Notes under the pieces: generated by a model
What the model was told of the DNA's origin: nothing
Seen by the model: the letters and a program-made list of their open reading frames with translations, nothing else
Database searches by the model: none
Program-made: the position numbers and the translations under genes
From: a virus
Virus record (IMG/VR): IMGVR_UViG_3300033064_003457
Span: 1 to 64,000 of that record
Length of the DNA stretch: 64,000 bases
Reading direction: 5' to 3' (one strand)
Shown here: positions 53,749 through 64,000 of the stretch, piece after piece
Layout of the letters: each line of letters opens with the position of its first letter
How positions within the stretch are numbered: position 1 is the first letter of the stretch

Positions 53749-55125
53749 TTAGCTCCAGTCAGAATATACTCCAGGAGATTTAAGGATTCTTTCTGTCCTT
53801 TTATTTGCCCCGAGCCTGCCATCTTCAGGAACACTCCATGTTCTAACGCCTCTCATTGGAGGTGTTGCTGGATTGGCTACGCCCTTAATAACCATCTTTG
53901 CTCTAGCCCTTCTGTATTTGCCTAACAATTGTTTTAGCCAAGCATTGCTACACTCTAAAGCCTTAGCTATAGAACTCTTTACGCCATCCTGAACCTCAGT
54001 CCCTTCCTGGATTGAGAAATCTCCCAATCTTTTCATTTCTCCGGCACCCGATGAGGCCATGTCTAATAATCTGGCGTGTAAAAGATCGTATTGAGTTTTG
54101 CAAAATACCCACATTTTTGCTGCAAACGTTGGAGAACTTAGCGCCCATTGAGACTGATCATACATAACATTTGCTATATTATATGCCTCTAGGGAGTTAA
54201 GGTATATCGTCCTATTAATAACATCGTCGTTAACATCACGGATAAATGGTCCTATTGCTGTTCTTATTTTTTTTACTGTGCTATACAAAGGATAGTAACA
54301 AGTAGTAAACATAAACTCATAGTCATCACTAAGTAAGTTGCCCTGATAATCTTTTACATCCTCAGAAACAGTTACTGTTACTTCGTTGTTCACTCTCCAT
54401 GTCGTATGATTGTCTTGATACGTAGATGGAGTCCATGTAATGGTATCACCAGTTACGTTGGCAACAGTTCCGCTAGGAGTTGCTGTTGTGGTTGATGGGT
54501 CTCCGTCTACAGCCTCAACAGACAATGCTATCCAGTCTTGCTCTACAGCAGTACCACTAGCTAATAGTCTATTGAATTTTACACTGACGCTATCGCCCCA
54601 TGTAACAGTTGTGTGATCGCTGCTCTCTGTACCTAGATTTGTACCATAGTTTCCTGGTGTAGTTTTTGTAATAGCAAAAGATGTTTGAGATCTTGGCTCT
54701 AAAACCTTGGCTACTGGAGAACTGGCCACAGGTGTGTCTGGTTGCGTTTCTGGAATCGTGTCTTCTGGTGCCTCGTACAACTCTGTACCAGTAGTAAAAT
54801 ACCAAGTAGCAGTTGTAACTAAGCTCTCTGATGATGCGTTCTTTACACATGTACTAGATTGATCTGCACCTACCACTACAACATTATAGGTAGTGTTTTC
54901 ATCGAATATACTATCAGGGGTTATAGTAGCAGTATAGGTAGAACTACTGTACCCTATCGTTTTATCAATAAGCTCATAGTCTGAAGACCTGTAGACCAAT
55001 ATAGTGTTATCTGTCAGCGTGCTAGAGTCAACGTTTTGATCAAACACTAGATATATAAGCTGATTTAAGTATATATTAGTAGCGTTTATTGCTGGTATTC
55101 TACTACTTAATTGTGGTGCAGCCAT
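53749..55125 (-). CDS. Head-tail adaptor-like protein with N-terminal Ig-like (Big_5-like) domains
   Basis: P...ATNI...IYLVFDQNVDSSTL...TITP...ENTTYNVVV pattern; C-terminal YSTVKKIR...KRLGDFSI adaptor-like region. Confidence 0.6.
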   Translation of the reverse strand: MAAPQLSSRIPAINATNIYLNQLIYLVFDQNVDSSTLTDNTILVYRSSDYELIDKTIGYSSSTYTATITPDSIFDENTTYNVVVVGADQSSTCVKNASSESLVTTATWYFTTGTELYEAPEDTIPETQPDTPVASSPVAKVLEPRSQTSFAITKTTPGNYGTNLGTESSDHTTVTWGDSVSVKFNRLLASGTAVEQDWIALSVEAVDGDPSTTTATPSGTVANVTGDTITWTPSTYQDNHTTWRVNNEVTVTVSEDVKDYQGNLLSDDYEFMFTTCYYPLYSTVKKIRTAIGPFIRDVNDDVINRTIYLNSLEAYNIANVMYDQSQWALSSPTFAAKMWVFCKTQYDLLHARLLDMASSGAGEMKRLGDFSIQEGTEVQDGVKSSIAKALECSNAWLKQLLGKYRRARAKMVIKGVANPATPPMRGVRTWSVPEDGRLGANKRTERILKSPGVYSDWS

Positions 55126-55711: not shown

Positions 55712-58226
55712 TTATGTAGTAGTTACACCTGTCTGATCTATGGTAGGTAACGCGCCAGAACCAGCCTGCCAATTAAGCATATCTTCAATAGCGTATGCTT
55801 TAGCAATGCTTGTGTTCTTAGCAACGGCAACTGCGTTGCCTTCGTTAAGAATACCTAAACCGTATCTTTCTCTAAACTTGATAGATCTAATATCTCTATT
55901 CGGGTCATCCCATTCTTCATTAGTTACATCTTCGTCAACAACAAGGATACCAAGTTCATTGGTATCGCACATAATTATATCAGTTGTTGCCGCAGTTGCA
56001 CCAGAACCAGCTGTATAAGAACAGAACGGACTTACTATGATCCGTAATGGTGCTGGGAAAAGATTAGGTACATTAGAGAAGGTTGAAGACATTGAAGTGG
56101 CTTGCGCCGTAGGTCCAACGTTAACTCCACCAGTATACCAGCTTTTCGCCAAACCAGCTTGCCCCTGTAGAGGGGAGAAGATCGGTCCACCGTTAGCAAA
56201 ACCAAAAGCTCTTAAAATAGGATCACGTGCAAAAGTTAACCAGCCAAGAGGGCTCATTAAAAGAGCATTAGGCACAAAACCCTGTCTTACTATATTAGCA
56301 TACATAACTAACAAATCATCTAAAGTGATTGTAGCATTTCCATTACCTGCAGAATCACGTCCTGATGTTTGTAGGTTGTTAACATTATAATCAAAAGTAG
56401 TAGCACCTTCATTAGTGATCATGTTAAAAATCTTTGTTTCTTTATGCCGCGCCAGTGCTCTACCCGCAGCTTTAATATGCCTTAAGTGTTACCCATAATT
56501 ATGGGGTCTAAACATTTCTGCTAGACTCTTGTGCTCTCACACAAGAACGGACTATATCATCATGCCCTTTAGCATGCCAGTCGCTGTTTTTATCGATTTT
56601 ATATTTCATAGAAGGAATTATATATTTAGATATTTGAGGAGATAATTTATCAAATTCTGTTCCGTTAGTCCTCAATCTGTACTTATCTCTTGTTTTGCTT
56701 ACTTTAAAATTTACTCCCAAAATATTCTTTAAGTGTTTGGCTAGAATGAGTTGATCTTCTATAGGATAGCAATCGGTACACAATGTAGCATCCCATCCAG
56801 CGCTTCTATACTTACCTATTCTATCGTGGTTACATCTATCTTTTTTCGTACATTTTTTAAAATGATGAAAAAGATTGCCATCATCCATCCACATTATGGC
56901 AAAACTTTGAGGGGTTATATAATTTAGTATATCTTTTGTTATTCTTTTATTGTTATTTATATATATTCTATTATATATATCCCTATACCAAGGATGCGCT
57001 CTACTTGTAGACGTAATCATTATTCTATCATCACAATAAGTTCCGATAGGTGAGTATTTATGCACTCTCATTTTTGTTACATCACTTAATAAATTTGTTT
57101 TCCAGGTTAGGTATTCTTCCTGTTTTCCGGAGTGGCACATAGAATAGTGCACGCTATTGCCTCTCTTGCATAAATAACCATCCCCAAGAATCATTCCAAC
57201 TATGATATCTTTTGTTTCTTTCTTGCTTGTTTTCAACATGGAATTTCTCCCAATAATTAGTTATCGATAAATTTAGTCTCTACGGGTTCCCTTATTGGGC
57301 TTCCCACGGTATTGCCCTCGACTTTACGTTAGGGGTTTCACCGTTTTCAACTGGTTTATTGAGCACACAAGAAATTCTCTCTATGCTCATTACATCGTAT
57401 TGACTATATCGTAACATCTCATCAGTAATTCTTACCTTGACACCAGATTTCCCGATGAATGCTGTACAATTTTGTTGCTACACGCGACCTGTTATATCTT
57501 CACCACAACAAGGACATATTAATTTGTGACCAGGAAGATGCTTTGAAACTGTTGTAAGTTCCAATTTTGTGTGGCTCGATCATTTCTGCCGAGCTCTGCA
57601 TGTTTCCATGCAGTTCAGACTATCGCTTCGCACATAAGTGCGTCCCATTGCTTAGTCGTTGCAGCTGCACAGATCTCTGAGATCTTGCTTGCTGTGGATT
57701 GCCATAGCTTTCGCCTTAGGGTTCCCCAATTAATCAAACGGGATTTAAACACGGCTACTTTGTTAACCGTACCAGCTACTTCGAGTTTTCTTTCCGGATA
57801 TTCTCCGCCTTCTGGAATATCTTCAGCTGTAAAAGCACCAGCTGCTGGGAAAGTAATCTGTTGCCCGGCAGAAAATCTGATAGTATGTAACAAACTAGTA
57901 CCAACTAACAAGGGTTCCATGGCTTCCTTAACTACATTGGAAACAACTCTTCCAATGAGTATTGAAGCATCTGGGGTAGAAAGAGCATCAACTAAATCTT
58001 TATAACCAATTTTCTGATCTCTCTTAGAGGTATCATACTGGTCATTCTGATTTTCGTAACCATTGTTACGCCAAATTTTCCATGTATTGTCATACTTGTC
58101 TTGCAATTTACCATCGGAAAATTCAGAACTCTTACCTTCTACGCCTGCAGATTTCAATTGCTTGGTCACCTTGGCAGTTATTGTATCTACTAATTCTTCA
58201 TTCACTACCAACTTGTCGTCTGCCAT
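55712..58226 (-). CDS. Major capsid protein (437 aa after splicing): complement(join(55712..56480,57383..57466,57766..58226))
   Basis: Removing two introns gives one continuous frame: ...RKLEVAGTV-TAFIGKSGVKVRITDEMLRYSQYDVMS-MHIKAAGRALARHKETKIFNMITNEG..., with HK97-like features (IPEGGEYPE, KSGVKVRITDEM, PNALLMSP, KFRERYGLGIL). Exon lengths 461+84+769=1314 nt. Confidence 0.9.
56481..57382 (-). mobile_element. Group I intron 2 in the capsid gene (902 nt) carrying a LAGLIDADG homing endonuclease
   Basis: 5' exon ends GAGCAU, pairing with intron GUGCUC (U.G at the splice site); core motifs GAGACTA and GATATAGTCC; intron ends in G (…CTTAAG); splicing restores the frame. Confidence 0.9.
56508..57239 (-). 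CDS. Intron-encoded LAGLIDADG homing endonuclease
   Basis: IVGMILGDGYL and FAIMWMDDGN motifs, HSGKQEEYL, MKYKI; SD GGGAG; the 3' end overlaps the intron core. Confidence 0.9.
   Translation of the reverse strand: MLKTSKKETKDIIVGMILGDGYLCKRGNSVHYSMCHSGKQEEYLTWKTNLLSDVTKMRVHKYSPIGTYCDDRIMITSTSRAHPWYRDIYNRIYINNNKRITKDILNYITPQSFAIMWMDDGNLFHHFKKCTKKDRCNHDRIGKYRSAGWDATLCTDCYPIEDQLILAKHLKNILGVNFKVSKTRDKYRLRTNGTEFDKLSPQISKYIIPSMKYKIDKNSDWHAKGHDDIVRSCVRAQESSRNV
57467..57765 (-). mobile_element. Group I intron 1 in the capsid gene (299 nt), no intact ORF
   Basis: 5' exon ends ACGGU, pairing with intron GCCGU (U.G); core GCAACGACTAAG ... GCGATAGTCT; stem TGCATG-GAAA-CATGCA; intron ends in G (…AAATTG); splicing restores GTT ACA GCA. 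Confidence 0.88.
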
Positions 58227-58265
58227 AACTATATTTCCTCCTTTATTTTTATATTTTAACCTCAA

Positions 58266-61325: not shown

Positions 61326-61484
61326 TTATTTTTCTTTGGCTGGGCTTTTTTTCTTATTAGCCCCACTTTTGCTATACCTTTTATTAAGGTCTAATTGTAC
61401 TTGTTTAAAATATTCTGCATTTTGACCTTTGCTCGGATCGTAAGGACCGACACCAGCCGTTGAACCACCTATGCTAGCTCCCAT
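61326..61484 (-). CDS. Small protein (52 aa) missed by the ORF track
   Basis: SD GGAGG then ATG; translates MGASIGGSTAGVGPYDPSKGQNAEYFKQVQLDLNKRYSKSGANKKKSPAKEK; fills the gap after the portal. Confidence 0.6.
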   Translation of the reverse strand: MGASIGGSTAGVGPYDPSKGQNAEYFKQVQLDLNKRYSKSGANKKKSPAKEK

Positions 61485-63312
61485 CTTGAACCTCCATATT
61501 AAACTCAGAGTCTATTAAATTAAAAATTCTATAACGTAACGACTCAAATATTCCTGCCACCCTAGATGGCATATCGTCACGCATATGTCTCTTTTGTATA
61601 TCTCTATCTATAGCTTCTGCTAAATCTCCTAGTATGCTTTTTAATTCTTTTTCTATATGTTTTAACTTTTTAGAACCAGATAACTTCAATCTTATATCTT
61701 CGTAGGTAAGCATCGCTATTGGACGCAATTTTTCTAAATCGAAATTGCTGAAATCTTTGATATCATTAAGCATATCTACTACATCTAACCTAGTAAGGTA
61801 CCAAGAATGGTCCACTAAAGCTTTTAGTTGGTCTTTTTTGCTTTTTGTTTTTGCTTTTTTTGTACCATGTTGATTTTGGGGTTGTTCTCTATTGATAGTT
61901 GCCTTTTTCTTTTTTTCTTCCTTGGACACCTTTTCGACCAATGCTCCCTTGGCTTCAGAGGTAAATGGTTCGTCTACAGCTAGTATAATTGCTTTTGGCT
62001 TTGTAACTCTTTCAAAGTACATGTCGCTACGTTGTTTTTCGCTAACTGGATCAAGCCCGATTAGGTCCCTTAGCTCTGTTTCTGTTATAGCATCATGTTC
62101 GTACTTAAAGACAGAATGATTCTCAACTTGCAACATACTGTCTATATCTATTTCATTAAACTTTAGCTTTACGAAGTTATCTTCCTTTTCGTCCAACTGA
62201 AAACCACCTTCGAACAATAGCTCTTTAATCATGAACTCATTAACGAACGTCTCTGCAACATCTTGAAAATCTTTGCATCTATCTGTAAGCATTTTATCTA
62301 TTACAGTAGCAGTAGATCTATTAGCAGAGTCGCCTCTTCCGAGAGCTACCTCTGAGATTCCTAATCCTGCAAGTACACGAGATTCAAAATAATCTAAATA
62401 CTTAGATGCATCTAGTGCCTTTCCTTGGGCACCAAGGCTTCTTATTTCATGCCTTTCTGGTGTAACTATACTTCCTTCAGTAGGCATGTCTTCTATTTGG
62501 TCTTTTACTATGTCTATTTCTGTTGTGCCGTCATCGTACAGTTCTGCAGGATTATCCTCAGTCCCTACTATATATTGGTGTAGGGGGAATAGATGCTGAC
62601 TAATTAGCATCTCTATGTTCTCTTCCATTCTTCTCAACGATCTTATGTCGTCTAGCACTGGTATAATATATGGAGTACCAAATGCAAAGCCCTCTTTTCT
62701 GTCATAATAGACATGAACCACGTCTTCTGCTCTAAATTCCGGGGTCTTAGGATTTCCAGTTACCTTCTGCTGATATTTTAAAATCTTACCATACTCTGTT
62801 CGCTTAATTAACATTGACGTAGGATCCATAGGAAAGTATGCCGCGATTGGATTTAGTGCTGATCTATAATTGCCACCTATTGGTGTTCCAGATGAGAATC
62901 TCTTGTCCCTTACCTTTACCATAAAAGCGTTAGAGTATGAAACTAAATTCTGCAATACACTTCTAAGCAACATATCAAACGTCATGCCAGAAACATTAGC
63001 CATTTCTCGTAATCTACGTCTGATGTAGTTCGTGGCCTCTTCATCCCTAGAACTTATTTTATAGCCTTCCTTCAAACATAGCTCTATGTGCTTGCCAAAT
63101 GCTTGTCTGACATATGACTCTATGTCAATTATTTTTGATATCTCACCTAGGTTATACTCAGCTCTTTCAAACTGGGCTCTAGATTGGGTAGAACCAGTAG
63201 CCGAACCGTAAACAACGCCCCTAGAACTTATCCTGGGAACTATTATCGACTTTCTAGTGTTTTTATTTGTAGTTTTGTTTACTATTGACTGGCTAATAGA
63301 GAATAGATTCAT
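61474..63312 (-). CDS. Portal protein
   Basis: YSNAFMVK, PMDPTSM, EDVVH...FGTPYI, GDSANRSTA, KLKFNEID and ITETELRDLIGLDP portal motifs; located upstream of protease and MCP. Confidence 0.88.
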   Translation of the reverse strand: MNLFSISQSIVNKTTNKNTRKSIIVPRISSRGVVYGSATGSTQSRAQFERAEYNLGEISKIIDIESYVRQAFGKHIELCLKEGYKISSRDEEATNYIRRRLREMANVSGMTFDMLLRSVLQNLVSYSNAFMVKVRDKRFSSGTPIGGNYRSALNPIAAYFPMDPTSMLIKRTEYGKILKYQQKVTGNPKTPEFRAEDVVHVYYDRKEGFAFGTPYIIPVLDDIRSLRRMEENIEMLISQHLFPLHQYIVGTEDNPAELYDDGTTEIDIVKDQIEDMPTEGSIVTPERHEIRSLGAQGKALDASKYLDYFESRVLAGLGISEVALGRGDSANRSTATVIDKMLTDRCKDFQDVAETFVNEFMIKELLFEGGFQLDEKEDNFVKLKFNEIDIDSMLQVENHSVFKYEHDAITETELRDLIGLDPVSEKQRSDMYFERVTKPKAIILAVDEPFTSEAKGALVEKVSKEEKKKKATINREQPQNQHGTKKAKTKSKKDQLKALVDHSWYLTRLDVVDMLNDIKDFSNFDLEKLRPIAMLTYEDIRLKLSGSKKLKHIEKELKSILGDLAEAIDRDIQKRHMRDDMPSRVAGIFESLRYRIFNLIDSEFNMEVQDGS

Positions 63313-63314
63313 TG

Positions 63315-64000
63315 TTATTTCCCCTGGTTTTTGGCGTTTATCCATTCCTTAATCAATACTCTGTCATCGCTTACTAGTCTCCGTAGACAGGTATCCATCT
63401 TTTCGCTTCTTGATGTCCCAACAGACGTGGTGAGTATGCCAGATTCAGATTTCACAGATGTTCCCTGCTGTGTATCTTCATCTCCACTATCGGTGGTATC
63501 CTGTATGAAGCTATTAAAGGAGTTAGGATTTTCTTCCTCAGTGTATTTGTATTGCTCGCTTGGGCCTAAATCGTAAGCATCCATCAATCTCTTTATTTCC
63601 TCACCGGTAGGCGAAGAACCTGTTCCGCATATAGCAGATCTATTAAGCGCTGACGATACTAGATCTAAAAGGTTTATAAATGTTCCAAGTCCTTTTTGCT
63701 CTTTTATGATAGTTAATTTAAGTCCATTTCCTATGTTCTTTAGTTCGTTCTGTTTATACCATTTTTTTATCAATTTAGCCAGCAGTCTTTCTACATAGTC
63801 AATGGTATTAACCACATAATTATTTACAAATTCATCAACTGGTGTACAAACAAATATTTTCTGCCACCTAGGATCTGGATTGTTCACCCATTTTTTAACT
63901 GGATCTATAAGACTTTGAAATACTTGAGTAACCAATGAAACTAACTGATGTGTTATTATGTTTCTAAATATATTATTAGTTATGTTTTTTATTGATATGT
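63315..64000 (-). CDS. Hypothetical protein, partial (frame open to the right edge)
   Basis: No stop codon between 63935 and 64000 in this frame. Confidence 0.6.
   Translation of the reverse strand, partial: ISIKNITNNIFRNIITHQLVSLVTQVFQSLIDPVKKWVNNPDPRWQKIFVCTPVDEFVNNYVVNTIDYVERLLAKLIKKWYKQNELKNIGNGLKLTIIKEQKGLGTFINLLDLVSSALNRSAICGTGSSPTGEEIKRLMDAYDLGPSEQYKYTEEENPNSFNSFIQDTTDSGDEDTQQGTSVKSESGILTTSVGTSRSEKMDTCLRRLVSDDRVLIKEWINAKNQGK

Follow-up and report, generated by a model that had tools for sequence, protein, structure and literature searches.

Group I introns within phage capsid genes are documented in several systems. The capsid gene of mycobacteriophage LittleE (Cluster J) contains an insertion of 819 bp, probably a group I intron, that holds a LAGLIDADG endonuclease gene and whose efficient splicing was shown by reverse transcription PCR (RT-PCR) and N-terminal sequencing (Pope et al. 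2013, PMC3706429), and the same paper cites lactococcal phage Tuc2009 as having a capsid intron. In crAss-like phages of the Delta and Zeta groups, group I introns are typical of the major capsid protein (MCP) gene, one such gene being found in five fragments with up to four insertions (Yutin et al. 2021, PMC7886860). Jumbo gut phages harbour group I introns at about 18 per genome, and metatranscriptomes support approximately half of those tested (PMC12880540), and subgroup IA2 accounts for over half of viral group I introns (PMC11835236). Here we report on the first 64 kb (hereafter, the window) of a 75-kb virus record, IMG/VR IMGVR_UViG_3300033064_003457, from an uncultured jumbo myophage, whose major capsid gene very probably consists of three exons split by two mobile group I introns and spliced to yield a 437-aa coat protein.

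The locus resembles that of LittleE in that a LAGLIDADG-bearing intron of probable group I type interrupts an HK97-type capsid gene, the upstream exon ends in U and the intron in G, intron-less relatives are known, and a related intron without an endonuclease gene exists. It differs in having two introns, 84 nt apart, rather than one, and in the orientation of the endonuclease gene, which is on the opposite strand in LittleE and on the same strand here. Splicing was demonstrated in LittleE, a temperate siphovirus, and is inferred in the present jumbo myovirus. With the crAss-like MCP genes it shares a metagenomic origin and multiple group I introns with endonuclease domains, although those phages belong to an unrelated order with an unrelated MCP family, and their introns were recognised via protein domains, whereas RNA structure and covariation were examined directly here. 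Another parallel is orf142 of Staphylococcus phage Twort, a late gene other than the major capsid gene, in which Landthaler and Shub (1999, cited in PMC6669764) reportedly described three group I introns of subgroup IA2 that are said to have been shown to splice; it too combines multiple introns in a single late gene with short internal exons, such that exon skipping is possible. The intron endonuclease gp210 of PhiPA3, like the elements described here, comes from a group I intron that occupies an essential gene of a jumbo phage; when a relative co-infects, it targets that relative's allele without the intron, and it acts in phage-phage competition (Birkholz et al. 2024, PMC11620839). Its target is an RNA polymerase gene and its competitive role was shown experimentally, whereas such a role is hypothetical here. 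The original prediction for this DNA, made from the letters of the window, had called two introns in the most abundant structural gene unusual. This was overstated in view of the capsid-gene introns published for LittleE, Tuc2009 and crAss-like phages (PMC3706429, PMC7886860): capsid introns are of a known kind, found here in a phage lineage, that with a 0305phi8-36-like capsid, in which they were previously undescribed.

The program-made list of open reading frames (ORFs) contains, on the minus strand, two capsid fragments (57615-58265 and 55712-56422) and misses the 84-nt exon 2, just as the original prediction had noticed (Table 1). Precise removal of both insertions, also as anticipated, joins the exons into a 437-aa frame with a single stop at its end, the codons at both junctions being split (GT|T for Val and AT|G for Met). 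For comparison, homologs were gathered from 15 related viral contigs, 53 metagenome loci and 35 further loci. In most of the fetched loci the three pieces are contiguous as one ORF of 432-439 aa. The joined frame aligns with 14 uninterrupted homologs with zero indels, including at both junctions, and over 45 additional loci lacking the introns share this uninterrupted layout. Across the junctions, the peptides AGTV|TAF and VMS|MHIK are identical to the unbroken sequence found in intron-less homologs, and the 27 residues TAFIGKSGVKVRITDEMLRYSQYDVMS encoded within exon 2 (57465-57385) are 96-100% identical to the corresponding stretch in every close uninterrupted homolog. Both insertion sites lie within the most conserved segment of the protein, which does not differ among the close homologs and where the DNA varies mainly at wobble positions. 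The exons are free of frameshifts and premature stops, and are 100% conserved at the junctions.

The interrupted gene is predicted to encode an HK97-fold major capsid protein. Exon 3 alone matches the annotated major head proteins of Bacillus phage 0305phi8-36, Moorella phage MTATph1, Acinetobacter phage ME3 and others (30-33% identity, E down to 1e-30). An uninterrupted homolog 80% identical to the joined frame (L002) matches PHROG major head families at 2.5e-25, and a profile search returned 659 relatives. A search of PDB sequences with two profiles gave no significant capsid match. An AlphaFold model was built on L002 with 95 diverse homologs and reached a predicted local distance difference test score (pLDDT) of 81.5, compared to 38.5 with 18 close homologs alone; in Foldseek this model matches HK97 gp5 (E 2e-11, probability 1.0), along with many other phage capsids. 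In the modelled fold, strands 151-169 form the long beta-hairpin, in which site 1 would lie, and 178-207 the spine helix, at whose start site 2 would be located, so that exon 2 would contribute the second strand of the hairpin and the beginning of the helix.

The features that the original prediction had listed for both introns, i.e. a P1 helix placing a U.G pair at the 5′ splice site, a P7 motif and a terminal G, were all retrieved. The last base of the upstream exon, U (for exon 1, the final base of ...ACGGU), pairs with G of the internal guide sequence, and this U.G pair is invariant in all copies; the terminal G is kept in 8 intron 1 copies and in both of those known for intron 2. P7 has the layout (A/G)-bulge-GACUA facing UAGUC(U/C) in both, with a G-C pair beside the bulge that would form the G-binding site. 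A conserved core of P3 to P9 with the P3/P7 pseudoknot is present in both introns, and the group I signal is far beyond chance in each, as judged from covariation controls and from matches to the Rfam group I model RF00028 (E 4.9e-10 and 5.5e-6). The hairpin loops of P9.1 in intron 1 (57574-57594), in intron 2 (56506-56526) and in their counterparts in contig L006 share the motif CAGAAAUG / UAGAAAUA. The shared CAGAAAUG motif suggests that the two introns are related, or that they make the same tertiary contact. A crude scan of the 75-kb record for P7 motifs returned the two capsid introns only.

At site 1, an intron occupies the exact same position in eight other contigs (L006, L023, L032, L043, L065, L067, L069 and L092), the last of which came from the 35 loci added later. 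Complete copies measure 667-683 nt, each with an intact 152-aa HNH endonuclease gene; the full gene from L006 matches HNH PHROGs at 8e-28. Neither P2 nor P7.1/7.2 is present. RF00028 aligns over its full model at 57775-57596 with 43.5 bits when a 341-nt stretch is scanned. Covariation was assessed with hand-drawn helices P1, P3, P6, P7, P8, P9 and P9.1 in an alignment of six copies: pairing holds in 94.3% of cells, compared to 28-39% with the partners slid by one to three columns, compensatory change is seen at 14 pairs, and none of 500 shuffles equalled the result. Pairing reaches 97-100% in the pseudoknot helices P3 and P7, each of which has two compensatory pairs, and RNAalifold independently recovers P1, P3, P6, P8, P9 and P9.1. 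Moreover, the first base of exon 2, the wobble base of the split Val codon, is T, C or A depending on the allele, and the P10 guide triplet located just 5′ of the guide sequence tracks this change (GUA/UAC, GUG/CAC and GUU/AAC), with two of three P10 pairs retained in L043. Such covariation of P10 with the exon argues for selection on exon ligation.

Intron 2 is known from a second, 912-nt copy in L006, which comes from an independent sample and whose endonuclease is 47% identical. An exact-pattern search for further copies returned the L006 contig alone, and the added capsid loci gave none. In both copies all helices P1 to P10 (P2 apart, see below) are present, including P5, P6 and a 3-bp P10. 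The sequences of P4, P5, P7.1, P8, P9, P9.1 and P9.2 differ between the two copies with pairing maintained. The P7.1-like helix, which follows P7 and precedes the P3 3′ strand, has 9 bp in the window and 11 bp in L006; it stays paired despite two double changes, and its position is typical of IA introns. RF00028 matches this intron in two parts: P4-P6 and the P7 5′ strand at 57347-57272 (18.9 bits), and P8, J8/7, the P7 3′ strand and P9 at approximately 56662-56528 (31.4 bits). The 243-aa ORF of intron 2 is a LAGLIDADG_2 homing endonuclease (Pfam PF03161, 106.8 bits for a cut-off of 25, E 1.5e-30, whole profile covered) that also matches a PHROG at 4e-15. It contains the motifs ILGDGYL and WMDDGNL and appears to be active. 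The last 30 or so codons of this gene traverse P7.1′, P3′, P8, P7′ and P9 and extend into P9.1. Since the end of the gene overlaps the ribozyme core, translation of the endonuclease and folding of the ribozyme should be mutually exclusive. The original prediction had counted the introns correctly, and missed both this gene and the HNH remnant of intron 1.

Table 1. Positions in the window of the capsid gene, its two introns with their helices and endonuclease genes, and neighbouring head genes (RBS, ribosome-binding site)
Feature	Position	Strand	Remarks
MCP exon 1	57766..58226	-	461 nt; ATG at 58226; AAGGAGG RBS upstream
Group I intron 1	57467..57765	-	299 nt; terminal G at 57467; no P2
Intron 1 P1	57771-57766/57755-57750	-	UACGGU/GCCGUG with U.G at 5′ splice site
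Intron 1 P3	57743-57737/57649-57643	-	
Intron 1 P6	57694-57662	-	
Intron 1 P7	57659-57653/57622-57617	-	bulged base adjoining G-C pair
Intron 1 P8	57642-57629	-	
Intron 1 P9	57613-57596	-	
Intron 1 P9.1	57594-57574	-	
HNH endonuclease gene remnant in intron 1	57478..57564	-	last ~28 codons only
MCP exon 2	57383..57466	-	84 nt; split codon at each end
Group I intron 2	56481..57382	-	902 nt; terminal G at 56481
Intron 2 P1	57388-57383/57366-57361	-	GAGCAU/GUGCUC with U.G
Intron 2 P3	57354-57348/56583-56577	-	CCAGUUG/CGACUGG
Intron 2 P4	57344-57339/57311-57306	-	
Intron 2 P7	57278-57274/56554-56550	-	GACUA/UAGUC with bulge
Intron 2 P7.1-like helix	57271-57263/56597-56589	-	closes ORF loop
Intron 2 P8	56576-56561	-	
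Intron 2 P9	56545-56528	-	
Intron 2 P9.1	56526-56506	-	
Intron 2 P9.2	56505-56492	-	
LAGLIDADG homing endonuclease gene in intron 2	56508..57239	-	243 aa, intact, double-motif; own GGGAG RBS
MCP exon 3	55712..56480	-	769 nt including stop codon
Portal gene	61474-63345	-	PHROG 1e-58
516-aa protein gene	head module	-	weakly similar to head maturation proteases
260-aa protein gene	head module, between protease-like gene and capsid gene	-	protein of unknown type
Virion protein genes and tail sheath gene	head module, after capsid gene	-	

The core of intron 1 in the window shares 98% identity with its counterparts in L065 and L069, against only 67-77% for the exons on either side (88-90% over the last 50 nt). 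Intron 1 is considered mobile because such near-identical cores sit in capsid alleles this divergent, a pattern characteristic of an intron recently transferred horizontally by homing, perhaps along with a short co-conversion tract. The window's copy is without 384 nt present in those of L065 and L069. These nucleotides were deleted between two AAAAT(N)GGA direct repeats, of which the first lies where the HNH gene has its ribosome-binding region and the second 28 codons ahead of the stop of that gene, so that only the C-terminal 28 or so codons are left and an intact HNH catalytic domain is lacking. The window's intron 1 thereby presents itself as an endonuclease-less derivative at a late stage of the homing cycle. 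Two public proteins, P0067 and P0077, are capsid calls cut short at about 200 aa, which run from exon 1 into intron 1. P0077 has the same read-through peptide as the window and a different exon 1 N-terminus, which implies that intron 1 occurs in further diverged alleles and that such genes are mis-annotated.

Several observations weigh against a spliced capsid gene with two group I introns. Splicing itself, in its chemistry as in its efficiency, and likewise the activity of the endonuclease, are deduced at the sequence level. Rfam cmscan found no group I match in the 64-kb window at the gathering threshold, nor in 3 kb at E of 10 or less. The scan with group I models that had been proposed as a check did match both introns, only on stretches of 341-936 nt and with all three scores under the gathering score of 50, a value that is an annotation threshold rather than a structural feature. 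The blank result on long stretches is attributed to a filter effect, because matches appear when the shorter stretches are scanned. For intron 2, with two copies known, covariation amounts to a single comparison, and in intron 1 the 384-nt deletion falls in the 3′ part. In addition, the frame of exon 1 continues without a stop over the first 49 codons of intron 1 (57615-57765), through P1-P8 up to a stop inside the P7 3′ strand, and that of exon 2 over the first 30 codons of intron 2 (57292-57382), up to a stop in the P6a loop. Without an early stop after either 5′ splice site, ribosomes could invade the ribozyme cores and disturb their folding. In T4 introns an early stop is usual. Such a stop is thought to shield many phage introns from ribosomes (PMC3984707). 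Nevertheless, collinear homologs, Rfam matches, covariation and the modelled HK97 fold converge on the capsid gene with two group I introns around an 84-nt exon that had originally been proposed.

Whether the two introns splice unaided is a separate matter. It is possible, but in our view unlikely, that they are unable to self-splice and need a protein helper, either a LAGLIDADG maturase or a host RNA chaperone, with intron 1 perhaps dependent on a factor supplied in trans. Bacterial and phage introns assisted by LAGLIDADG maturases or by host chaperones, StpA and S12 among them, have been described (PMC3984707), both introns of the window lack P2 and score below threshold in Rfam, and the overlap of the LAGLIDADG gene with the ribozyme core points the same way. 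However, the core helices and the G-binding architecture of P7 are intact and under covariation, and intron 1 persists without an endonuclease gene. The degraded endonuclease gene of intron 1, and the nature of the contig as an incomplete metagenomic fragment, would also fit a dead capsid gene, disrupted by endonuclease-associated insertions in a phage that is defective or in decay, the locus yielding no working capsid protein. This appears very improbable, given the undamaged exons and fully conserved junctions, ribozyme helices that stay paired via compensatory changes, the same architecture in the independent sample of L006, and a head module in which no second capsid gene was seen.

Endonuclease insertion is known to split genes in T4-like and jumbo phages (PMC2988022; PMC12880540), which leaves room for a split gene expressed as separate polypeptides that assemble without splicing. 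Here this can be given hardly any credence: exon 2 has neither start codon nor ribosome-binding site, the junction end of exon 3 offers no start either, the first ATG of that exon lying 20 codons in and lacking a Shine-Dalgarno sequence, and the cuts fall inside the predicted beta-hairpin and spine helix of the HK97 fold. Inteins, an alternative version of the same idea, are excluded by the in-frame stops 49 and 30 codons into the insertions and by the absence of a Hint domain in Pfam.

We thus return to a spliced capsid gene, for which the following course of events is proposed. The capsid pre-mRNA would be transcribed as a single unit, with each intron folding its ribozyme core. An external guanosine would attack after the U of the P1 U.G pair; the freed exon end would then attack after the terminal G, with P10 aligning the exons, and the ligated mRNA would be translated into the 437-aa capsid protein. 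Exon 2 comprises 84 nt, hence its skipping would leave the frame intact, and the skipped product, 28 aa shorter and without core fold elements, would probably be non-functional. The LAGLIDADG endonuclease of intron 2 presumably cuts intron-less capsid alleles of co-infecting relatives, repair then copying the intron in. Intron 1 would have arrived likewise with its HNH endonuclease, whose gene was subsequently deleted with the ribozyme kept. A blastn search with intron 1 against cultured phages gave short core-motif matches only and no close named relative.

The capsid locus sits within a head module encoded on the minus strand. As the 75-kb record is judged to be only about 36% complete, its source is considered to be a jumbo phage. 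Two genes downstream of the capsid gene, a 458-aa protein (53749-55125) contains two bacterial Ig-like Big_5 domains (Pfam 7.3e-19) and may be a head decoration protein. Beyond the window, at 71700-73600 of the same record (L106), another gene is interrupted: upstream of a cold-shock-like exon (208-450 of L106, minus strand) there is an insertion that contains LAGLIDADG and HNH ORFs, of 209 aa and 181 aa respectively, and in which two partial RF00028 matches of 27.5 and 25.3 bits were found.

This capsid family has a third group I-like site, which lies 16 nt upstream of site 2 (L062:390-1245, metagenome contig Ga0307928_10111633). The insertion, of approximately 0.84 kb, interrupts a Tyr codon at CAGT|AC, with U at the exon end and a terminal G, and carries a different LAGLIDADG gene (GFFDGDG motif). 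The public gene call P0095 runs from a more divergent capsid allele into an intron of this type.

At least three group I insertion sites are thus found across this capsid gene family in a 100-nt stretch, which encodes the beta-hairpin together with the beginning of the spine helix, and they are associated with an HNH endonuclease (site 1), a LAGLIDADG_2 endonuclease (site 2) and another LAGLIDADG endonuclease (L062). It is tempting to speculate, although we regard this as rather unlikely, that the stretch is a contested hotspot and that its endonucleases serve as weapons against rivals rather than being purely selfish passengers. By analogy with PhiPA3 gp210, which cuts the polymerase gene of a rival, they would then cut the capsid gene of a rival jumbo phage.

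Gene callers fragment this capsid gene (P0067, P0077, P0095) and default Rfam settings miss both introns, which implies that capsid genes in such metagenomic phages are systematically mis-annotated. Taken as a natural series, the intron-less alleles, those with an intact endonuclease gene and the allele from which it was deleted trace the homing cycle. Because two group I introns break the capsid gene into three exons, the coat protein could only be made after RNA splicing, and this jumbo phage would depend on two splicing events for its most abundant structural protein.

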